From the NCBI GenBank assembly GCA_903851135.1, contig CAINNK010000037.1:1320-65319 (forward strand): 64,000 nucleotides of DNA, in the 5' to 3' direction. The position numbers were made by a program, and so were the translations under genes. Every line of letters begins with the position of its first letter. Position 1 is the first letter of the stretch. Below the pieces are notes generated by a model. That model did no database searches and was not told where the DNA came from. It saw only the letters and a list, made by a program, of their open reading frames with translations. The DNA comes from an uncultured bacterium. Lineage in GTDB: Bacteria; Patescibacteriota; Minisyncoccia; Moranbacterales; GWC2-37-73. This document shows positions 7,501-63,405 of the stretch, piece by piece.

Positions 7501-10500
7501 TCAACAGTTGGCGTGTTTCCAGCTTTAATATCGACAGTTGCGCTTGTGTTGGCTGGAGTTACAATTGAATAATTAAGCGTGGTGAAGGTTTTAATGCTGC
7601 CAGAATCAATGATAGCAGAATTGAAGGTTCCGCTTGAAAAATAAAAAGTGTGTCCAGCGTTGATTGTGCCACTGGCAGTTCCCCAAACTTGCACTGGAGA
7701 AACTCTTGTTTTATTGTTGTTTTGACCCAACTGTCCATTGCCATTTCCACCCCAAACCCAGACACTGCTGGCATCTGACATGAGAGCAACTGAATGAGCA
7801 TAACCACAAGAAATCATAGAAATACTAGAGGAACCAACGCTACCACCGACTTGCACAGGCGTAATACTATCCACAGTGTTTCCGTTGCCAAGTTGACCAT
7901 AAGCGTTCCAACCCCAAGTCCAAACCGTGCCATCATTTTTAAGGATAATAGAATGATTATTTCCAGCTTTAACCATATTAACATTTGAAGCACCCGCGCC
8001 AGTCACTGGCAAAGCTATCGTTGCTGAATTGCTATTACCAGTTCCCAGCTGTCCATAATCATTCCAACCCCAAGCCAATAAAGAACCATCATTAAGCAGC
8101 GCAAAAGAATGCGCATAACCAGCACTTATTTTTGCAACATTTGTGATTCCGGCAAGACTCGGATCAACAACTTGCACCGGCAAAGATTTATCAATCTTGG
8201 AATAATCTCCAAGCTGACCCTGGTCATTGCTGCCCCAACTCCAAGCGGTTCCATCATACAGTGAAGCTAATGAATAATAACCGCCACCAGAAATTGAACT
8301 CACATTAGTCAAGAAACTACCACCTGTTTTATCTTTAACTTGTTGCGGATAAGGTTGAAAAAAGCCAATACCGCCAATACCTATTTGCCCTTTCCCATTT
8401 CCTCCCCAAGCCCAAACTGTGCCATCACTCCTGAGTGCCAAAGAATGCGTGTCTCCCAAAGAAATCGCAGAAATGTTTTGCAGATAATCTCCGGGAGTTG
8501 AGGAAGCTTTTACTTGCACTGGCAAACTTTGACTCGTTTGCGTGCCGTCGCCCAATTGACCATAAGAGTTCCAACCCCAAGACCAAACCGTGCCATCAGA
8601 TTTCAATGCCAAAGAATGATTATACCCAGCCGCAATGGCAATAACATCGGTCAAACCAACCACTTCAATTGGTGTCAATCTGTTAATATTCGTACCATCT
8701 CCGAGTTGTCCAAAACCGTTTGAACCCCAAGCCCAAACTGTGCCGTCAGATTTCAGGCCTAAATTATGAGCATAACCCGAAGAGATATCTGAGAAACCAC
8801 TGATAATTCCTTGGGCCGATCCCCAGACTTGCACCGGCGTGCTTCGATTGACAACATCATTGACGCCAAGTTTACCGTTGAAATTCCAACCCCAAGTCCA
8901 AACGGTGCCATCCAATTTCAAGGCCACCGAAAAACCTTCCCCACCTGAAACCATCACACTATTGCCACTGCCAAAAGCTTCAACCGGAACCGGGGTTGAC
9001 TTATTTGAAACTGTTCCATCACCTAATTGACTTTTACTGTTGTTTCCCCAAGCCCAAACTGTGCCGTTTGCTCTGATGGCCAAAGAATGATCACTTCCAC
9101 CGCCGATGTAATTAACGTCCGTCAGATTCAACACTTGCACAGGAACATCCGAAGAATTGTTGGTTCCGTCCCCAAGTTCGCCACTGACATTGCTTCCCCA
9201 GGACCAAACGGTCTTGTCTGACTTGAGCACGACCGATCTATTTTTGCCACCATTAATTGAAATAACATTGGAAACTCCTGAAACTTGCAGGGGAATATTA
9301 CTATCCAGCAAAGCTCCATTGCCAAGCTGACCCAAACCGCCATCGCCCCAAGCCCAAACGTTTCCATCTGAAGTCACAGCCATTGTGGTCTTGCTATTGA
9401 TTCCGGAAGTAATCATGGAAACTTGAGCTAGGTTTGAAACTTGCACTGGCAAGTTCGTGTTAACATTGGCTGCATTTCCCAATTGACCTTTGTCATTAGA
9501 GCCCCATGCCCAAACTGTGCCGTCTTTTTTCAGGGCAATTGAATAACCATTGCCGGCTGAAATTGCAATCACATCTGAAAGGGTGCCAGTGCCATTAAAA
9601 TTTTTCACTTTTACTGGAAACAAACTTGAACTGTTAGCTCCGTTGCCAAGTTGGCCCAGGCCGCCATCTCCCCAAGCCCAAACTGTTCCATCAGCGTCAA
9701 GCCCCAAGGAATGATTATCTCCCGCTGCAACTGCCTCGATATTAGAAAGATAATCACTATCAGTTGAATTTCTGATTTGCACTGGTGTTAGACGTGCTGT
9801 TTGCGTGCCATCACCCAATTGTCCACTGTCATTTTGTCCCCAAGCCCAAATCTTATGATTATCACTGATGAGCAACACATGTCCTACTCCAGCCGAAATA
9901 GCTGCAATTCCTCCATAACCCAAATCAACCCGAGCACTGCTACCAGCCGAACGTCCTTTCGTTTGAATATGTTGGCCTGCGTTAAAACCACCACCATTTG
10001 GGGTGTCTTGGGCGCCAGTGTCAGAAGTCTGCACCGAAGAACCAGCCGTCCAATTCAATTCAACATCGTTGCCGGCATTCGTGGTTTTCACGAAAGGATC
10101 TTTGCTCGAATATTCATCCCAACCTCCGACTTTTCCTGGGTGTACATCAGTGTTGTTCGTTTGACCACCTGACCATTTCAATTGTTGCCAAGTGTAGGTC
10201 GCTCCATGCGCATCATGCAAGTTTTGAAAAAAGGCCACCGACACTATCGCCAAAATTAAAAATGAAGAAAAAACTCTTTTGGCAAAAATCGGATTGAAAG
10301 CAAAAGTTTTTTTGGATTTTTTGAAAAATTGCGCAACATTTTGTCCTATTGGATTTTCTTTCTTTTTGCGCGCCGCAAAAGATGGTGCAACTATTTTTCC
10401 AGTGCCAATAGAAAAAGTCACCACCGTTTCCGCTTTCCATTTGCGCATGATTCGCAAAGAAGAAAAAGCAGCAGGCTTGGAATTGGTTTGAATCTTTTTT

Positions 10501-28599: not shown

Positions 28600-28675
28600 G
28601 GCAGGGTAGCTCAGTTGGTTAGAGCACAGCCTTCATAAGGCTGGGGTCGCGAGTCCGAGTCTCGCCCCTGCTACG
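28600..28675 (+). tRNA. tRNA with CAT anticodon (elongator Met or Ile2/lysidine type)
   Basis: It begins ggcagggtagctcagttggttagagc. The anticodon stem is cagcc/ggctg with loop ttCATaa, the T-arm is gcgag-tccgagt-ctcgc, and the acceptor 3' strand is ccctgct. Confidence 0.8.
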
Positions 28676-28683
28676 GATATTGA

Positions 28684-29373
28684 TTGAAAAAAATCATGCC
28701 AATTTACAAAAAGAAAAATGAGAATTTCTTTAAAAAATGGTCACCAGAAATGGCTTACGTGTTGGGATTTTTTGCAGCAGATGGTTGCATGATTAAAAAC
28801 AATCGCGGAGCACATTTTATTGAGTTTCATATTACTGATTTAGATATTTTGGAAAAAATTAAAAAATTACTAGAAGCTGAGAATAAAATTTCAACAAGAA
28901 AAACCAGTGCTGAATTAGCAAATGCATATAGACTACAAATAGGAAGCAAGGAAATGTTTAAAGATTTATTATCGCTTGAATTTAAGCCTAGAAAGAGTGC
29001 CAGCGTTCAATTTCCAAAAATTCCAAACAAATATTTGAAAGATTTTGTTCGAGGATATTTTGATGGAGATGGAAATGTTTATGCAAATGAATATCAAAGA
29101 AAAGGAAAACCTAGCAAAAGTCTAACATTGCTAGCAGGATTCACTTGCGGTAGCAAAAATTTTTTAGAAAAGTTAAAAGAAGAATTGAAACAGGTTGCAA
29201 ATTTATCAGGGGGAACATTGCATGAAATTGGCGGGTACTTTCGCCTATACTATTCAGTAAAAGATAGTTGCAAGTTGTATAAATTCATGTACAATACAAA
29301 AAGTGATTTATTTTTGGAGCGAAAGAAAAAGGTTTTTGAAGGTTATTTCAAAAAGCAAAATATTTTATTTTGA
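28684..29373 (+). CDS. LAGLIDADG-family homing endonuclease (double-motif, free-standing)
   Basis: ORF track. Motif 1 is LGFFAADGCM and motif 2 is VRGYFDGDGNV. The protein is Lys-rich, as is typical of homing endonucleases. It lies between tRNA(CAT) and tRNA-Asp, not inside a tRNA. Confidence 0.8.
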   Translation: MKKIMPIYKKKNENFFKKWSPEMAYVLGFFAADGCMIKNNRGAHFIEFHITDLDILEKIKKLLEAENKISTRKTSAELANAYRLQIGSKEMFKDLLSLEFKPRKSASVQFPKIPNKYLKDFVRGYFDGDGNVYANEYQRKGKPSKSLTLLAGFTCGSKNFLEKLKEELKQVANLSGGTLHEIGGYFRLYYSVKDSCKLYKFMYNTKSDLFLERKKKVFEGYFKKQNILF

Positions 29374-29389
29374 TAAAATGGACTGGTAG

Positions 29390-29466
29390 CTCAGTTGGTT
29401 AGAGCACCGCCCTGTCACGGCGGGGGTCGAGGGTTCGAGTCCCTTCCAGTCCGCATAGATAAAAAA
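29390..29466 (+). tRNA. tRNA-Asp (anticodon GTC)
   Basis: The acceptor is ggactgg/ccagtcc with discriminator G. The anticodon stem is cgccc/gggcg-like with loop ctGTCac. The T-arm is gaggg-ttcgagt-ccctt. Confidence 0.85.
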
Positions 29467-58586: not shown

Positions 58587-59258
58587 TTAAAGAGTTTCAT
58601 ACACCAATTCCTCATTCCCGCTGAAACTCTTGATCACGTCAATCACTTTTCCGAAAACCTGAAAATCTTTTTTCATAATGATCGGACGATATTGCGGGTC
58701 GCGAGACATTGGTTGCAAAACCACGGCGTTGGGAGAAAAATTGATTTGTTTTATCAGCGCCATGCCATCAACCACTGCCACCACTTTGTCTTTGTTGACA
58801 ACCTCAAGGGTTTTTTCCGTGATCACCAAATCCCCCGTTCCAATCCCGGCATCAGACATTGAATCACCAACCGCCCTGAAAACAAAAACCTGCTCAGGAT
58901 TTTTGCCGTGAATAAAATCTCGATCGAGGGTGACAAATTCAGCAAAAGATTGCTCGGCAAAAACTTGCATGTTATCACAACCAGCACTGCTGAGCACTGG
59001 CAAAATCACGGTTTGAGTCATCACATCATTATGAGTTGCCAAACGAATGCCGCGATTTTGGTGACGAGAGCGAATGATGAGATTTTTCTTTTCCAGACTT
59101 TCCAAGTATTGCGTCACAGTTCGCAATGACGAAACTCCCATAAACTTTGCCAGCTCCAAAATCGTGGGAGAAGACCCATCTTTTTCAAGGCAATCACAAA
59201 TATATTCAAAAATCTTTTTTTGTTTTTGAGTAAGTTTTTTTGTTTTTTCTTTTAGCAT
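58587..59258 (-). CDS. lexA: LexA repressor (S24 peptidase)
   Basis: ORF track gives 58587..59342. It has a winged-HTH N-domain (TQKQKKIFEYICDCLEKDG...ILELAKFMGVSS) and a C-terminal motif VFVFRAVGDSMSDAGI ... ALIKQI (Ser/Lys dyad). The likely true start is MLKEK at 59258, because a TATAAT sits 6 nt upstream. Confidence 0.85.
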   Translation of the reverse strand: MLKEKTKKLTQKQKKIFEYICDCLEKDGSSPTILELAKFMGVSSLRTVTQYLESLEKKNLIIRSRHQNRGIRLATHNDVMTQTVILPVLSSAGCDNMQVFAEQSFAEFVTLDRDFIHGKNPEQVFVFRAVGDSMSDAGIGTGDLVITEKTLEVVNKDKVVAVVDGMALIKQINFSPNAVVLQPMSRDPQYRPIIMKKDFQVFGKVIDVIKSFSGNEELVYETL

Positions 59259-59264
59259 TCTGAC

Positions 59265-59293
59265 ATTATACAACTTTTGGATTTGTGTAACAA
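59265..59293 (-). promoter_or_regulatory. candidate lexA promoter producing a leaderless or near-leaderless mRNA
   Basis: On the minus strand, TTGTTA is followed by 17 nt, then TATAAT, then gtcaga, then ATG. Confidence 0.4.
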
Positions 59294-59564
59294 TAGTACA
59301 CTTGTGCACACAATATACACAACTGTGCAGAACCCTGTGCATAATCTTAAAATGGCTTTTCTTAGCCAGATAAGCTGCTTATATTTCGCGCTTCCGTGCA
59401 ACACAAATGTGCAGCATCTTTACGTTGTGCATAACTTTCAATACACAACACACACAAATTTAAATTTGATTTGCAACTAGTTTATGATTTAAAAACATTT
59501 TAAAGGCTTCTATTGATATTTTTATCAATATCTGTTAATCTAAATCTTGTAAATAAGTGTACAC

Positions 59565-59650
59565 GGAGAAGTGACTGAGAGGGTTGAATGTAAGCGGGCA
59601 AACATTCAACGGGTTTCAAAAGAAACCCTGGCGGCCCGAAGTCCACAGTT
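59565..59650 (+). other. tRNA-Ser 5'-half-like element ('A')
   Basis: The first ~20 nt (ggagaagtgactgagagg) match the 5' end of the adjacent tRNA-Ser(GCT). The sequence then diverges into a perfect 9-bp hairpin (gttgaatgt/acattcaac), the motif gggtttcaaaagaaaccc, cccgaagtcca, and a T-run. No cloverleaf can be drawn. Confidence 0.4.
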
Positions 59651-59677
59651 TTTTGAATTTACGAAGTAAATAGATAT

Positions 59678-59767
59678 GGAGAAGTGACTGAGAGGCCGAA
59701 AGTACCTCACTGCTAACGAGGCAGGGCTTAATCGCCCTCGAGGGTTCGAATCCCTCCTTCTCCTCCA
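59678..59767 (+). tRNA. tRNA-Ser (anticodon GCT), long variable arm, CCA encoded
   Basis: The acceptor is ggagaag/cttctcc. The anticodon loop is ctGCTaa. The variable arm is agggcttaatcgccct. The T-arm is gaggg-ttcgaat-ccctc. Confidence 0.8.
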
Positions 59768-59827
59768 AAAAACAAGGTCTCTATCTCAAGACCATTTGGT
59801 TTTTTGTGTTTTTAAAAAAAATAATTA

Positions 59828-59925
59828 AGAAAGCATGGCCGAGTGGGTATGGTGCGAATGTGTGAGCATTATGCGGATTTCAAAAGAAACCCAGGAACCC
59901 GAGGTCATTCAAATTTTTGCATTTT
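59828..59925 (+). other. tRNA-Ser 5'-half-like element ('C')
   Basis: aagcatggccgagtgg matches the 5' end of the adjacent tRNA-Ser(TGA). It then diverges into ggatttcaaaagaaaccc, cccgaggtca and a T-run. It shares the tttcaaaagaaaccc ... cccga(a/g)gtc motif with element A. Confidence 0.4.
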
Positions 59926-59940
59926 TGAAAAAAATATTAA

Positions 59941-60027
59941 GGAAGCATGGCCGAGTGGTTGAAGGCAACAGTCTTGAAAACTGTCATGGGGAGACCCATC
60001 GTGAGTTCGAATCTCACTGCTTCCTCA
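59941..60027 (+). tRNA. tRNA-Ser (anticodon TGA)
   Basis: The acceptor is ggaagca/tgcttcc. The D-arm is gcc-gagtggttgaa-ggc. The anticodon stem is acagt/actgt with loop ctTGAaa. The variable arm is catggggagacccatc. The T-arm is gtgag-ttcgaat-ctcac. Confidence 0.85.
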
Positions 60028-60049
60028 TTAACATAAAAGCAAAAGAGAT

Positions 60050-60145
60050 TCAAAGGGCGCAAGTAGAATGCAAGAAGTACAAGCATTCTGCGTGTAGGGC
60101 CCAAACTGCGAGTCAGAGCAAGTAGGAATCTCACCACTTCCTCCT
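60050..60145 (+). other. tRNA-Ser 3'-half-like element ('E')
   Basis: It contains the hairpin agaatgc/gcattct and ends with aggaatctcaccacttcctcc, which resembles the T-arm plus acceptor 3' strand of the upstream tRNA-Ser(TGA). Confidence 0.3.
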
Positions 60146-60159
60146 TGTAAGACAGTAGC

Positions 60160-60182
60160 TAACACCCTATGGTGTTTTTTTA
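60160..60182 (+). terminator. rho-independent terminator after the tRNA-Ser region
   Basis: aacacc-ctat-ggtgtt followed by ttttttt. Confidence 0.5.
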
Positions 60183-60254
60183 TTTGTCTAAAAAATTTTG
60201 AGCAACTGAGGGTCTGTGTTAAAATCAACTTAAACAAGAGTAACAAAAAAACAT

Positions 60255-60845
60255 ATGCCAGTTGACCTACGACAATTTATCAACAAACCAAAGCAAAAAG
60301 AAAGACGAATTCCGCAATATTCGCAACCAGAGCCTCCAGAAAAGAAATCACCGAAAGAAAATGAAGAAAGCGAAGGAAAATATGGCGAAATCCTGCACCA
60401 ATGGCAGGCGCCCGAGTTTGAGGTTTATGAAAAATCTGACCGCTGGTACCTTTTTGCCGGCGTTTTCCTTTTGGCGATCATCATCTATGCGATGTTTACA
60501 AACGGACCAATTATGGCAATCACCTTCATCTTGGTCGGAATCGTCGGCTACATCCATATGCAAAAAGAGCCGCGCATTGTAACATTCACCATCACCACCG
60601 AAGGAATCATAGCTGACAAGGATATGTATCTATATGAAAATATTCATTCCTTTTGGATTTTTTATGAACCGCATCACACTGAAATTATCAGCCTGCACAC
60701 CAAAGCCTCCATGCTTCCATACGTTCATATTCCCTTGCAAGATGAAGACCCGGTGCATATTCGTGAAATAATATTGCCATACATTCCCGAAATCAAACAA
60801 GAGCAAAGCCTGGTCGACACAGTTGAGAAGGTTTTGCATATCTAG
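60255..60845 (+). CDS. hypothetical membrane protein (196 aa)
   Basis: ORF track. It has a Lys/Glu-rich N-terminus and two TM helices (WYLFAGVFLLAIIIYAMF and IMAITFILVGIVGYI). Confidence 0.5.
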   Translation: MPVDLRQFINKPKQKERRIPQYSQPEPPEKKSPKENEESEGKYGEILHQWQAPEFEVYEKSDRWYLFAGVFLLAIIIYAMFTNGPIMAITFILVGIVGYIHMQKEPRIVTFTITTEGIIADKDMYLYENIHSFWIFYEPHHTEIISLHTKASMLPYVHIPLQDEDPVHIREIILPYIPEIKQEQSLVDTVEKVLHI

Positions 60846-60985
60846 AATAATTGGTAACTAGTAATCAGAAATCTAGTCTTTCTCAGCTACAACAAATAGA
60901 ACGTTTATACAATTAGAACGTTGCCAAGGCTTTACATTTTCCACCTATCATATATACTAAGTTTTGAGTTGAAAAATAGAAAAAT

Positions 60986-61058
60986 GTCCTTGTAGCTCAG
61001 TGGATAGAGCGTCTGGTTGCGGTCCAGAAGGTCGCAGGTTCGATTCCTGCCAAGGACA
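60986..61058 (+). tRNA. tRNA-Arg (anticodon GCG)
   Basis: The acceptor is gtccttg/caaggac with discriminator A. The D-arm is gctc-agtggatag-agc-like. The anticodon stem is tctgg/ccaga with loop ttGCGgt. The T-arm is gcagg-ttcgatt-cctgc. Confidence 0.8.
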
Positions 61059-61076
61059 CACTTTGTGTGTTTTTTG
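61056..61076 (+). terminator. small hairpin plus T-run directly after tRNA-Arg
   Basis: acacac-ttt-gtgtgt followed by tttttt. An inverted copy of the tRNA T-arm (tggcaggaatc) lies at 61075-61085. Confidence 0.45.
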
Positions 61077-61192
61077 GCAGGAATCAAACAGGAAAGGGGT
61101 CCCGCCCAAGGCGGACAGGCGGGAAAAACTAGGTTTTCCCGTGGCGGAAGCATTAAAACCACTGGGTTTCAAAAAGCATAGCGCATGAGATC

Positions 61193-61213
61193 TTCCTGCC
61201 AAGGACACACTTT
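61193..61213 (+). repeat. 21-bp perfect direct repeat of the tRNA-Arg 3' end (ttcctgccaaggacacacttt)
   Basis: It is identical to 61044-61064. The 128-bp segment between the copies contains gggtttcaaaaag, which is related to the motif in elements A and C. Confidence 0.8.
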
Positions 61214-61248
61214 AAAAAAAAACACCACCGATTTTCGGTGGTGTTTTT
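61214..61248. terminator. bidirectional terminator hairpin
   Basis: aaaaaaaaa-caccaccg-attt-cggtggtg-tttttt. Confidence 0.55.
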
Positions 61249-61272
61249 TGTTTTAACTTGTATAATTAACAT

Positions 61273-63405
61273 ATGGACATCTTTAATGCCAAAATCGGGT
61301 CAATTCCGAGAATCAGCGAAAAATACGTTGAAATTTTGAAAAAAATCAACGTTTTCACAGTGAGTGATTTTTTGCTTCACTTCCCTTTTCGCTATGAAGA
61401 TTATAGCGAACGAATTGAAATTGACTCCCTTGTCGCTGGGCAAACTGCCACGATTATGGGCGAGATTTCAACGAGCAAATTAGTTCGAACCTGGAAGAAA
61501 AAAATGCTCATTACAGAATGCCACATTGCAGATGAAACTGGCAGCGTGCGAGCGGTGTGGTTCAATCAGCCCTATGTCAGCGATTCGCTCACAGTCGGCA
61601 AAGGCGTGCGCCTGGCTGGCAAAGTTCTGGAAGACAAAAATGGCTTTTATTTTTCCAATCCGGCCTGGGAACTTTCTTCCCGCGAGCCGACCAACACTGG
61701 AAGATTGGTGCCAATTTACAGCGAAACTGAGGGCCTAACTTCCAAGTGGATTCGCTGGCAAATGCAAAACATTTTCAAATTAAAATTGGAAATTCCGGAT
61801 CCGATTCCGGCAGATATTCTCGAGGAACTCCACTTGCCGCCAATCAAAACTGCCTTACAGTATATTCACTTTCCCCAAAGCGAGAATCAATATTTGCTGG
61901 CTCAAAAAAGATTTGCTTTCCAAAATATGTTGACCGTCCAATTGGCCTCTTTGAAAGTCAAAGCCAATTGGGAAAAAGAATCCTGCGTCAAAATCCCTTT
62001 TCAAGAAAAAACGATCCAGCAGTTCACCGCTTCCCTGCCCTTCACCCTGACCAACGCCCAACGTAAAGCGTCTTTCGAAATTCTCAAAGATTTGGAAAAA
62101 ACCAGACCCATGAACAGGCTGCTTAATGGTGACGTTGGCTCTGGCAAAACTATCATCGCAGCCCTGGCAAGTTTGCAGACAACCCAAGCTGACTTTCAAA
62201 TAGCTATCATGGCCCCCACTGAAGTTCTGGCACGGCAACACTACACAACCTTTTGTGAATTATTCAAAAATACCAAAATAAAGATAGCATTGCTGACAAA
62301 TTCATACAGAGAAACTAACTCAAAGCAAAATACAAGATACGAAATACAAGATACAAAAAAAGTTCAAAAATCAAAAGCCCAAAGAGATGAATTATTAACC
62401 AAAATAAAGCATGGAGAAATAAATATCACAATAGGCACGCACGCCTTGATTCAAAAAGACATTCATTTTAAGAATTTAGCCCTGGTTATCATCGACGAAC
62501 AACATCGCTTTGGCGTCAGCCAGCGCGCTTTTTTGCAACAGCAAATTGAAACTATCAATGATGGACTGCCTGGTAAAATCCCTCATTTACTCACGATGAC
62601 CGCCACCCCAATTCCTCGCACTTTGACGATGGCATATTTTGGCAATCTCGATTTGTCTTTGTTGGATGAGATGCCAAAAAATCGCAAACCGATTATCACT
62701 AAAATAGTTCCACCTCGCCAAAGGAATGAAGTTTATAATTTTGTCAGAAGCCAAGTGGCCGACGGTCATCAGGTTTTTATCATCTTTCCCTTGGTTGAAG
62801 AGTCAGAAAAATTGGCTGAACTTAAGGCGGCCACCCAAGAACATGAAAGACTTTCACGCGATATCTTTCCCGCGCTTTCCCTGGGGCTGCTGCACGGCAA
62901 ACTCAAAGCCAAAGAAAAAGAGCAAGTGATGGCAGATTTCAAAAATAAAAAATATGACATCCTGGTTGCCACTTCCGTGGTGGAAGTTGGCATCGATGTT
63001 CCCAATGCCACCGTCATCATCATTGAAGATGCCGATCGTTTCGGACTTTCGCAGCTCCATCAATTTCGCGGACGCGTCGGCCGCAGCCAGCTACAATCAT
63101 ACTGCTTTCTGCTAACTTCTTCCAACACCGTTAAATCAAAATCACGGCTGGGCGCTTTGGAAAAAACCAACGGTGGTTTTGAAATCGCCGAAGCTGATTT
63201 GAAAATGCGAGGTCCAGGTGAATTTCTGGGCCTGCGCCAATCCGGCTTGCCAGACATTGCCATGCAGCATCTCGGCAACGTGAAACTCATTGAAATTTCT
63301 CGCCAAAAAGCGCTCCAGCTTTTGAAAAGCAGTCCAACCTTGGCAAAATATCCTTTGCTCAAAAAAGAGCTGACAAGGTTTGCCATCAACGTGCACCTTG
63401 AATAA
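61273..63405 (+). CDS. recG: ATP-dependent DNA helicase RecG
   Basis: ORF track. It has an N-terminal wedge/OB region, the helicase motif GDVGSGKT, DEQHRFGV, and the C-terminal motifs QLHQFRGRVGRS and the TRG motif. It also has a Lys-rich low-complexity insertion (about residues 335-375). Confidence 0.9.
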   Translation: MDIFNAKIGSIPRISEKYVEILKKINVFTVSDFLLHFPFRYEDYSERIEIDSLVAGQTATIMGEISTSKLVRTWKKKMLITECHIADETGSVRAVWFNQPYVSDSLTVGKGVRLAGKVLEDKNGFYFSNPAWELSSREPTNTGRLVPIYSETEGLTSKWIRWQMQNIFKLKLEIPDPIPADILEELHLPPIKTALQYIHFPQSENQYLLAQKRFAFQNMLTVQLASLKVKANWEKESCVKIPFQEKTIQQFTASLPFTLTNAQRKASFEILKDLEKTRPMNRLLNGDVGSGKTIIAALASLQTTQADFQIAIMAPTEVLARQHYTTFCELFKNTKIKIALLTNSYRETNSKQNTRYEIQDTKKVQKSKAQRDELLTKIKHGEINITIGTHALIQKDIHFKNLALVIIDEQHRFGVSQRAFLQQQIETINDGLPGKIPHLLTMTATPIPRTLTMAYFGNLDLSLLDEMPKNRKPIITKIVPPRQRNEVYNFVRSQVADGHQVFIIFPLVEESEKLAELKAATQEHERLSRDIFPALSLGLLHGKLKAKEKEQVMADFKNKKYDILVATSVVEVGIDVPNATVIIIEDADRFGLSQLHQFRGRVGRSQLQSYCFLLTSSNTVKSKSRLGALEKTNGGFEIAEADLKMRGPGEFLGLRQSGLPDIAMQHLGNVKLIEISRQKALQLLKSSPTLAKYPLLKKELTRFAINVHLE

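Follow-up and report, generated by a model that had tools for sequence, protein, structure and literature searches.

What are the short sequences that copy one end of a tRNA gene and stand beside the complete gene? The question is raised by a 64,000-nucleotide (nt) stretch of contig CAINNK010000037.1, hereafter the window, which is part of the chromosome of a Candidatus Moranbacteria organism (Patescibacteria, the candidate phyla radiation or CPR). ARAGORN and Rfam call six tRNAs in the window. Three of these lie within the region studied here, where a repeat finder detects four direct repeats of tRNA ends and where four cassettes devoid of open reading frames (ORFs), termed A, C, E, and G, adjoin the three genes. 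A preliminary description, made by reading the letters alone, had noticed A, C, and E and considered three possibilities, namely a small repeat or mobile element copying tRNA ends, relics of integration, or tRNA-derived regulatory RNAs. We consider it secure that all four (A, C, E, and G) belong to families of structured, ORF-less sequences that are conserved and show covariation. As for their nature, our tentative answer, held with slightly less than even confidence, is that they are portable, semi-selfish structured-RNA cassettes that duplicate the end of a tRNA gene. The three genes are as follows.

59678-59767, plus strand: tRNA-Ser(GCT), intact (ARAGORN; Rfam tRNA model, 50.6 bits)
59941-60026, plus strand: tRNA-Ser(TGA), intact (ARAGORN; Rfam tRNA model, 61.4 bits)
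60986-61059, plus strand: tRNA-Arg(GCG), intact (ARAGORN; Rfam tRNA model, 73.1 bits)

Elements A and C, which precede the two tRNA-Ser genes, are built from the same parts. They are listed with their scores against R2, a covariance model that we defined from 16 relatives with the window sequences left out; here and below, E-values are approximate since the covariance models were calibrated in shortened form.

59565-59654, plus strand: element A, 5' family (R2, 86.8 bits, E = 7.9e-25, full length)
59565-59582: copy of nt 1-18 of tRNA-Ser(GCT) in A, ending at the D-loop GG (18/18 match)
59583-59610: hairpin hp1 of A, 9 base pairs (bp) with a 10-nt loop
59611-59628: hairpin hp2 of A, GGGTTTC-AAAA-GAAACCC
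59629-59634: linker of A
59635-59646: strand CCCGAAGTCCAC of A, pairing with nt 8-19 of the copy to form helix P1
59649-59654: run of six T in A
59655-59677, plus strand: spacer from A to tRNA-Ser(GCT), with the AT-rich palindrome ATTTAC-GAA-GTAAAT (read from the sequence, without statistics)
59829-59917, plus strand: element C, 5' family (R2, 79.3 bits, E = 2.1e-22)
59829-59846: copy of nt 1-18 of tRNA-Ser(TGA) in C (17/18 match; the mismatch is G2 to A)
59847-59874: hp1 of C, with three G.U pairs
59875-59892: hp2 of C, with one A.C mismatch
59898-59908: strand CCCGAGGTCAT of C, pairing back to the tRNA copy
59914-59918: T-run of C

The preliminary description was thus right that each intact tRNA-Ser gene is preceded by an element carrying a copy of that tRNA's start. 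These copies belong to longer direct repeats, which on the 5' side take in sequence upstream of the tRNA: a 32-nt repeat (D3) at 59551-59582 and 59664-59695, with a spacing of 113 nt and a final 18 nt, corresponding to tRNA positions 1-18, that are identical, and a 37-nt repeat (D1) at 59810-59846 and 59922-59958, with a spacing of 112 nt and 86% identity, of which ~19 nt (59810-59828) lie upstream of the copied tRNA start. In both elements, the T-run ends 23 nt ahead of the tRNA start (59654 to 59678 and 59918 to 59941). The motif said to be shared by A and C is present, both as CCCGA(A/G)GTC followed by T-runs and as an exact 15-mer, TTTCAAAAGAAACCC, which occurs exactly twice in the 64 kb (at 59614 and 59878), any other match requiring three mismatches. 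Its nature is different from what was proposed, however, since it is really the hairpin GGGTTTC-AAAA-GAAACCC followed by a strand that pairs to the copied half of the D-arm. Similarly, "tRNA-half-like" is not an apt term for the elements because their tRNA part is a short adaptor, of 18 nt on the 5' side or ~20 nt on the 3' side.

A and C are not unique to this locus. Syntenic loci, together with one pattern scan of 185,579 species genomes, yielded 20 loci (loci of relatives are numbered from L001), of which 17 belong to Moranbacteria or Parcubacteria and three are chance matches inside genes of other phyla; in the window, R2 detects A and C and no further significant match. True members, including the 16 relatives, open with a copy of the first 18 nt of the tRNA downstream, as far as the D-loop GG, and continue with hp1 (9 bp, loop flanked by GA..GA), hp2 (GGGUUUC-AAAA-GAAACCC, 7 bp), a short linker, the 3' strand of P1, and five or six T. 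When each was folded alone, a three-way junction was predicted by minimum free energy for 18/18 distinct sequences of the family. Hairpin hp1 is 98.8% paired, with changes on both sides in 6/9 pairs and a covariation of 0.315 compared to 0.137 in shuffles (0/500 reach the observed value) and at most 0.09 for slid partners. Helix P1 is maintained by differing pairings, GACU/AGUC and GGG/CCC around tandem G.A in the window, CUGAGAG/CUCUCAG in L005, and GCUGAGCG/CGCUCAGC in L014. The alignments were seeded by sequence patterns fixing parts of hp2 in this family and of helix P3 in the E-type family below, so that hp2 is fixed in pattern-found members; in members found by the model, its stem covaries (GGGUAGC/GCUACCC, GGAAUC/GAUUCC) and the AAAA loop is unchanged. 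Since G.U pairs far exceed non-pairs, the tRNA strand is likely to be the one that folds.

Family members lie 13-30 nt (rarely ~100 nt) upstream of same-strand tRNA-Ser genes with all four anticodons (GCT, TGA, GGA, and CGA) or of tRNA-Cys. Judging from the linker and the 3' strand of P1, the A lineage and the C lineage each consist of orthologs from more than one genus, and the elements are therefore old at their sites. Copy number varies, element A being present once in the window, twice in tandem in L010, and four times in L004, with a period of 113 nt. In all members, P1 ends 2-5 nt before the run of five or six T, where a terminator scan makes no call because the "loop" is a branched domain.

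This pattern raises the possibility that the cassettes are host-beneficial structured RNAs, i.e., tRNA-end mimics acting in cis or in trans, an explanation that we regard as doubtful on its own and yet nearly as likely as the one we favor. A and C would then be leader or small RNAs produced from the duplicated tRNA start and ending at P1 and the U-tract, possibly as an attenuator. Several features argue for this, including 1) strong covariation and near-invariant core nucleotides, 2) the G.U pairs on the tRNA strand, 3) the retention of the same A or C lineage at the same tRNA across genera, and 4) the U-tract found directly after P1 in every 5' member. Such RNAs might bind or titrate a factor recognizing tRNA ends (a processing, modification, charging, or toxin enzyme). 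Alternatively, they might control the maturation of the neighboring tRNA by alternative pairing, which is conceivable because the complementary segment has two possible pairing partners, the copy and the real tRNA.

The spacers of this family deserve a brief mention. Relatives show compensatory variants of the AT-rich palindrome listed above (ATTTTC-GAA-GAAAAT, GTTTAC-GAA-GTAAAC, and ATTTTT-GA-AAAAAT), which also precedes tRNA-Ser(TGA) in L001, where this gene has no cassette. In other lineages, the spacer from U-tract to tRNA (59655-59677 and 59919-59940 in the window) is a small hairpin, UCGAGGC-UAU-GCCGAG, with tandem G.A. Separately, one phage contig (IMG/VR UViG_3300010354_000050; L068 and L071) contains four copies of GGTTTTCAAAAGAAAACC, which is identical to one hp2 variant; the context is unrelated, each copy lying between a terminator-like hairpin and a TTGACA box, as a repeat beside phage promoters.

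Element E, which follows tRNA-Ser(TGA), is the mirror case, with the following parts.

60042-60144, plus strand: element E, E-type 3' family (covariance model R1, full-length match at 60042-60142, 72.4 bits, E = 4.6e-18)
60045-60051: GAGATTC, complement of GAATCTC
60055-60102: helix P2 (GGGCGC / GGGCCC), with a hairpin of the hp1 type at 60064-60090
60106-60125: helix P3 with CGAGTCAGAGCAAG
60126-60144: diverged copy of tRNA-Ser(TGA), from the 3' part of the T-loop to the 3' end

E does end in a copy of the 3' end of tRNA-Ser(TGA), as had been noticed. A 26-nt direct repeat (D5; 60004-60029 and 60121-60146) is 81% identical to its source, with two mismatches in the last 16 nt of the copy. The placement of E in one family with A and C did not hold, because these are separate families, that of E being much the larger, which have only the hp1-type hairpin in common; R1, which was built without the window copy, has E as its sole match in the 64 kb.

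A scan of metagenome contigs with the E 3' motif gave at least 120 loci. Among the matches listed, ~40 are chance matches inside genes and 66 have a same-strand tRNA at most 400 nt upstream. In total, we collected 74 distinct E-type elements, and the tRNAs ahead of such elements represent at least 13 amino-acid types. In brief, an E-type element is a three-way junction of ~100 nt found downstream of a tRNA in Patescibacteria metagenomes, often beyond a terminator. After the tRNA and its frequent terminator come the complement of the T-stem 3' strand with AUUC, GAAG, and helix P2 (GGGCGC ... GCGCCC) with a variable hairpin. The second half consists of MGG, helix P3 (NNN-CGAGUCGGAGCGAG-N'N'N'), GAAUC, and the T-stem and acceptor 3' strands of the local tRNA, so that the distal end is a copy of that tRNA from T-loop to discriminator base, normally with at most one mismatch. 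In an alignment of 46 sequences, 89.2% of cells pair compared to 78.6% in shuffles, with double changes in 19/27 pairs (0/500 shuffles), and the outer pairs of P3 show both-side changes in 16-17 sequences. E-type loci span 31-66% G+C; since the G+C-rich locus L130 is also from Patescibacteria, the family is phylum-wide.

The copy in the window departs from this consensus. It reads CGAGUCAGAGCAAG, GAUUCAAAG, GCGCAAG, and GGGCCC, which are substitutions at invariant or near-invariant positions of the 46 relatives, several of the family-invariant positions being changed from G to A. E is probably a decaying copy. It is missing from the relatives L003 and L008, and L005 has a near-complete second tRNA-Ser(TGA)-like gene (2284-2393) where E lies in the window. 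That gene has a shortened 5' acceptor strand and a 30-nt palindrome in its D-loop, and it is not called by ARAGORN. Both the diverged 3' copy of E, with its substitutions at family-conserved positions, and the L005 gene are what would be expected if the elements were no more than tRNA pseudogenes in decay or tRNA gene ends duplicated in tandem at random. As a general explanation, however, this is hardly credible and is refuted by conservation throughout the families: the non-tRNA parts bear no similarity to tRNA bodies and are conserved with compensatory changes across genera (for E, across the phylum), at tRNA genes of many other genomes. The preliminary description had likewise argued against simple decaying pseudogenes, on the basis of the shared motif. 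Decay could still describe the E of the window today.

The fourth element, G, follows tRNA-Arg(GCG).

61065-61213, plus strand: element G, core type T2, after tRNA-Arg(GCG) (direct repeat D6, inverted repeat I3)
61065-61089: inverted copy of the tRNA-Arg 3' end (GTGTGT..TTGGCAGGAATCAAAC), directly after the gene
61090-61192: core of G, GGAAAGGGGTC .. GGCGGAAGC .. CTGGGTTTCAA .. ATGAGATC
61193-61213: direct copy of the tRNA-Arg 3' end, 21 nt without a mismatch
61217-61249: strong terminator after G

The perfect 21-nt repeat that defines G (61044-61064 and 61193-61213, spacing 149 nt) had been missed in the preliminary description. Its T2 core recurs in L015, where it follows tRNA-Leu as well as tRNA-Gly, and E-type elements of L203 and L191 have it nested within them at one fixed position. 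The same tRNA-Arg slot that holds T2 in the window holds a different, strongly conserved core, T1 (GGAGTGAGTGAA..GCGAGGCGGTGGCCAGAC..), in the close relatives L001 (3348-3530), L003, L005 (3255-3440), and L008 (3345-3512); T1 is also found behind tRNA-Ser(GGA) in L019 (about 7900-8000). T1 is a three-way junction closed by an anti-T segment paired with the tRNA copy, and it carries two AT-rich hairpins of 9-10 bp with compensatory changes.

Two minor observations concern these slots. A G+C-rich palindrome (CCGCCCAAGGCGG...) is inserted at 61102-61114 of the window, in L003 (1893-1922 and 3381-3400), and in L005 (2287-2316); its hosts are the G core, extra copies of tRNA 5' ends (Ser-TGA and Arg, within their D-loop part), and the second tRNA-Ser(TGA)-like gene of L005, and it may be a tiny mobile hairpin. 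In addition, L007 (3270-3300) and L008 (3271-3344) are near-identical contigs, except that a 41-nt deletion in L007 takes most of tRNA-Arg, which reflects either genuine variation or faulty assembly of a repeat-rich site.

How closely are the cassettes tailored to their tRNA? The inner junction has a fixed place within a universally conserved tRNA loop, following the D-loop GG in 5' cassettes and preceding the T-loop GAAUC in 3' cassettes, and the outer junction is at or past the gene end, which leaves the real tRNA intact. The length of the duplication varies from 18 to 53 nt. In 43/61 pairs, the direct repeat extends to the tRNA 3' end, and 3' repeats mostly stop within 3 nt of it, although some run up to 34 nt into the terminator. 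The complementary adaptor of E-type elements matches all 5 nt of the local T-stem in 12/51 cases. In window G, L115, L121, and L130, the complement reaches the very 3' end, so that the cassette mimics an acceptor/T-arm minihelix in which the T-loop is replaced by the core. If the cassettes are host RNAs, E and G would be trailer RNAs imitating the acceptor/T-arm "top half" of a tRNA, and two further points are in keeping with a host function: the tandem E copies of L130 have diverged after duplication by compensatory changes, and copies match the tRNA exactly as far as the discriminator base, next to diverged flanks.

We rejected three more specific ideas about the adaptors. If the core had been inserted into the T-loop of a duplicated T-arm, the complementary adaptor of E would equal the T-stem 5' strand of the tRNA itself, which is the case in 0/16 tRNAs with a non-Watson-Crick T-stem pair. 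That the 3' copy derives from mature tRNA is not supported either, since CCA is present in the copy but not in the gene in 2/36 cases, which is not above chance. Finally, the 5' tails of A and C and the 3' tails of E and G do not form a two-piece tRNA, as the partners do not consistently co-occur and C and E of the window are not complementary.

Do the cores belong to a known class of RNA? Searches of Rfam 15 (including hammerhead, hepatitis delta virus (HDV)-like, twister, pistol, hatchet, T-box, transfer-messenger RNA (tmRNA), and RNase P models) returned only tRNAs and chance matches outside the elements, both for the window at the gathering threshold and for 59300-61300 at E up to 10, and only tRNAs for seven loci with canonical E-type elements. 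We could not find the A/C and E families in Rfam 15 or any description of these elements in the literature searched. No tRNA was called in A, C, E, or G by ARAGORN or by the Rfam tRNA model at E up to 10, and neither folds them as intron-containing tRNAs. Intron-containing, permuted, or split tRNAs were rejected because only the intact genes are called and an acceptor 3' strand is lacking in A and C. A hammerhead core (CUGANGA/GAAA) or an HDV-like layout does not fit the junction sequences, as compared by eye. The resemblances of GAAGTCC in A to RNase P P4, of GGGAAAGGGGTC in T2 to the Tetrahymena intron, and of GGAUUCGA in E to tmRNA have no model support and were set aside as coincidences.

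The layout itself nevertheless suggests another explanation, which is that the cassettes are intron-like or trans-splicing ribozymes, whose complementary segment would guide them to the D-loop or T-loop and whose catalytic core would use the tRNA-end copy as an exon. The order guide, core, and 3' exon, mirrored on the 5' side, is that of a trans-splicing ribozyme. The outcome would be a self-sufficient mobile intron or a device replacing a damaged tRNA end. Consistent with this are the invariant unpaired core nucleotides (GAAG, UGYGYAG, and CGAGUCGGAGCGAG), the optional peripheral domains at fixed places (T2 inside E), the exon copy kept identical to the tRNA, and a precedent, theta ribozymes beside tRNA 3' ends (PMC10879173). 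We consider it unlikely, however, since the cassettes match none of the known ribozyme families, group I and group II introns are much larger than these cores, and splicing is unneeded when the real tRNA is already complete. It is also rather unlikely that the cores represent small RNAs of a new class, catalytic or equipped with a guide, that pair through the complementary adaptor with the universally conserved D-loop or T-loop region of a tRNA or of its gene and bring a replacement tRNA end as "exon." Such RNAs would be either ORF-less, mobile, ribozyme-like elements that rebuild the end of a tRNA gene on insertion, or tRNA-end repair devices, perhaps working with the upstream single-domain GIY-YIG nucleases described below.

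Theta ribozymes, which are minimal HDV-like ribozymes adjoining tRNA 3' ends in gut phages (PMC10879173), resemble the cassettes in being small structured RNAs by tRNA genes, with one core serving many isotypes and a proposed role at the tRNA end (PMC10879173). They differ in lying at most 5 nt from the tRNA end and in having an HDV double pseudoknot, a catalytic C, and no tRNA copy (PMC10879173), whereas the cassettes are 20-70 nt away, often past a terminator, form three-way junctions without an HDV-like Rfam match, and reside in CPR chromosomes, not in phages. The tRNA-like domain of tmRNA, YrlA (a bacterial Y RNA), viral tRNA-like structures, and T-box leaders also imitate or read parts of tRNAs, and T-box leaders end in a terminator helix and a U-tract. 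In the cassettes, the mimic is a literal copy of the end of the neighboring tRNA that changes with that tRNA; they have no specifier or T-box sequence, stand beside a tRNA gene and not beside synthetase or Ro genes, and have no Rfam match. Archaeal split or intron-containing tRNA genes (Nanoarchaeum halves, non-canonical D-loop and T-loop introns) likewise have breaks in tRNA loops and exon-complementary flanks, but our host is bacterial (RecG, LexA, SmpB, and tmRNA are encoded nearby), a complete tRNA gene stands beside every element, and ARAGORN and Rfam assemble no tRNA from them.

The evidence that leads us to favor mobility comes from comparing cassettes with one another. For E cores, there are 18 pairs with an identity of at least 93%, calculated with the variable hairpin, whose adaptors nevertheless come from different tRNAs. 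Besides the arrays of A, two copies of E stand in tandem in L130 and in L170, and like and unlike cassettes are found in tandem in L130, L170, L146, and L167, with nested copies as well; some tandem arrays come from short-read assemblies with gaps (L003). Close relatives are not alike at one and the same slot, which may be filled or empty, hold more or fewer copies, or have another type of core. We prefer this reading because mobile DNA is typically portable, nests and accretes, replaces other elements in a slot, and duplicates its target, and because genes for homing-type nucleases cluster where the cassettes are found. Of the three possibilities offered in the preliminary description, the small repeat or mobile element copying tRNA ends is therefore the best fit, even if the picture was incomplete, lacking the division into two families and the fourth element, G. 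Several of the same observations count against a host-beneficial RNA: the cassettes are dispensable, as close relatives are without them or have another core at the same slot; unlike cassettes are found in tandem or nested inside one another; near-identical cores stand behind unrelated tRNA isotypes; 3' cassettes are often beyond a terminator; no candidate partner protein is encoded nearby; and window E has lost invariant positions.

The data show the architecture of the cassettes, each consisting of a constant core of ~60-110 nt, predicted to form a three-way junction, bracketed by two tRNA-derived adaptors. The distal adaptor is a direct copy of the tRNA end (nt 1-18 to the D-loop GG on the 5' side, T-loop GAAUC to discriminator on the 3' side), and the proximal adaptor is complementary to its inner part, the two pairing as a closing helix. 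Beyond this, we infer that such cassettes spread between tRNA genes as semi-selfish elements. An inserting cassette could find its site through base pairing with the conserved D-loop or T-loop sequence, or through homology to it, with repair by copying, and might be assisted by homing-type nucleases at tRNA genes (small GIY-YIG and LAGLIDADG proteins). The folded strand, as RNA or possibly single-stranded DNA, would be needed for spread, and the transcripts of A and C would begin at the duplicated tRNA start and end in the U-tract.

A number of points weigh against this scenario. No transposase, integrase, or reverse transcriptase is found in or beside the cassettes, and we know of no mechanism that yields both a direct and a complementary copy of the target. 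With full T-stem matches in only the 12/51 cases above, some and perhaps much of the seeming fit of the adaptors is due to their pairing with GAAUCCC, a sequence that is conserved universally. Different genera have retained orthologous copies at the same tRNA, whose base changes are compensatory and whose core nucleotides hardly vary, and the copied tRNA end has not departed from the tRNA although the sequence around it has; a host RNA function explains such persistence and identity just as easily. Since many 3' cassettes lie beyond an intrinsic terminator, their transcription is uncertain.

Mobility of a more familiar kind would leave the scars of classical site-specific integration, i.e., attL/attR sites of prophages or of integrative elements, or remnants like those of cis-mobilizable elements (CIME), with nearly everything between them deleted. 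The likeness is real, for tRNA 3'-end repeats starting in the T-loop are what T-loop-class integrases leave, the tRNA is preserved, a separate terminator follows each copy of the repeat, such elements are known to accrete in tandem, and L001 has a large serine recombinase near its tRNA-Ser pair. Relics of integration in this classical sense, which the preliminary description had entertained, nonetheless do not fit and are very unlikely. There is no integrase or other element gene between or beside the repeats, and no recombinase among the ORFs of 55-64 kb. What lies between the repeats instead is an ORF-less conserved core of 95-130 nt, with a covarying three-way junction of 60-110 nt, that is maintained over hundreds of loci behind tRNAs of at least 13 amino-acid types. 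A second adaptor complementary to the repeat is present, and there is a mirror version with a D-loop junction at the tRNA 5' end, a duplication not known for integrases. Serine recombinases leave only 2-bp repeats. No family member was found in 2.9 million viral contigs, and a phage or plasmid origin was rejected on the same ground.

Non-autonomous elements such as miniature inverted-repeat transposable elements (MITEs) and short interspersed nuclear elements (SINEs) provide the other obvious comparison. Retroelements targeted to tRNA genes include the TRE elements of Dictyostelium, and integration of the Mauriceville retroplasmid of Neurospora is linked to tRNA. Like the cassettes, non-autonomous elements are short, ORF-less, and multicopy, with a conserved body, can lie beside tRNA genes, and have target-derived flanking repeats and nested and tandem copies. 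The cassettes are different in that their terminal inverted repeats derive from the local target and are not constant, the duplication is long with one end inside a tRNA loop, and no partner transposase or reverse transcriptase was identified. An identification as MITEs was rejected on these grounds, the inverted arms being locus-specific tRNA sequence and the duplication (18-53 nt) not of fixed length.

As mentioned above, nuclease genes are concentrated at the same sites. ORFs of 75-80 amino acids consisting of a single GIY-YIG domain (Pfam PF01541) sit 8-127 nt upstream of a same-strand tRNA in 13/17 cases, compared to a chance expectation of ~1.4% per case, and six of these 13 tRNAs carry an E-type trailer. 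In L003, the GIY-YIG ORF forms its own cassette, with extra tRNA-Ser(TGA) 5'-end copies on its flanks. The window itself has a free-standing LAGLIDADG ORF between tRNA-Met and tRNA-Asp, ending 7 nt before the latter. This association may however be an independent case of homing genes parked beside conserved genes. The coordinates of these genes are the following.

L003 1947-2183, L005 1920-2162, L099 10217-10441, L127 9521-9754, and L158 3649-3891: GIY-YIG ORFs (among others)
28600-28674: tRNA-Met of the window
28696-29373: LAGLIDADG ORF of the window, free-standing (Pfam LAGLIDADG_3, E = 1.7e-15)
29380-29454: tRNA-Asp of the window

If these findings stand, Patescibacteria, which have tiny genomes and make up a large share of bacterial diversity, carry at least two widespread, unrecorded RNA-like families linked to tRNA genes, one of them with more than 70 distinct copies at tRNAs of at least 13 amino-acid types. 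A constant core placed between a tRNA-end copy and its complement has no counterpart that we found in Rfam 15 or the literature searched. As mobile elements of a new kind, the cassettes would explain how tRNA genes can be colonized without being destroyed and would be linked to small GIY-YIG nucleases; as tRNA-mimicking RNAs of a new kind, they might help to mature, protect, or repair tRNAs in organisms in which the biology of tRNA has hardly been studied. In practice, the cassettes create partial tRNA matches, tandem repeats, and assembly gaps in metagenome-assembled CPR genomes, and models R1 and R2 can be used for annotating them.

The remaining genes of the region are listed below.

58590-59342, minus strand: LexA, neighboring gene
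60255-60845: ORF of 196 amino acids, whose homologs bear Moranbacteria or Parcubacteria names
61273-63405: RecG, neighboring gene

Upstream of the LexA-like gene, at 59280-59450, there are at least five copies of TGTGCA(C/G/T) (among them tgtgcacaca, ctgtgcag, ctgtgcat, atgtgcag, and ttgtgcat), which may be operator sites.

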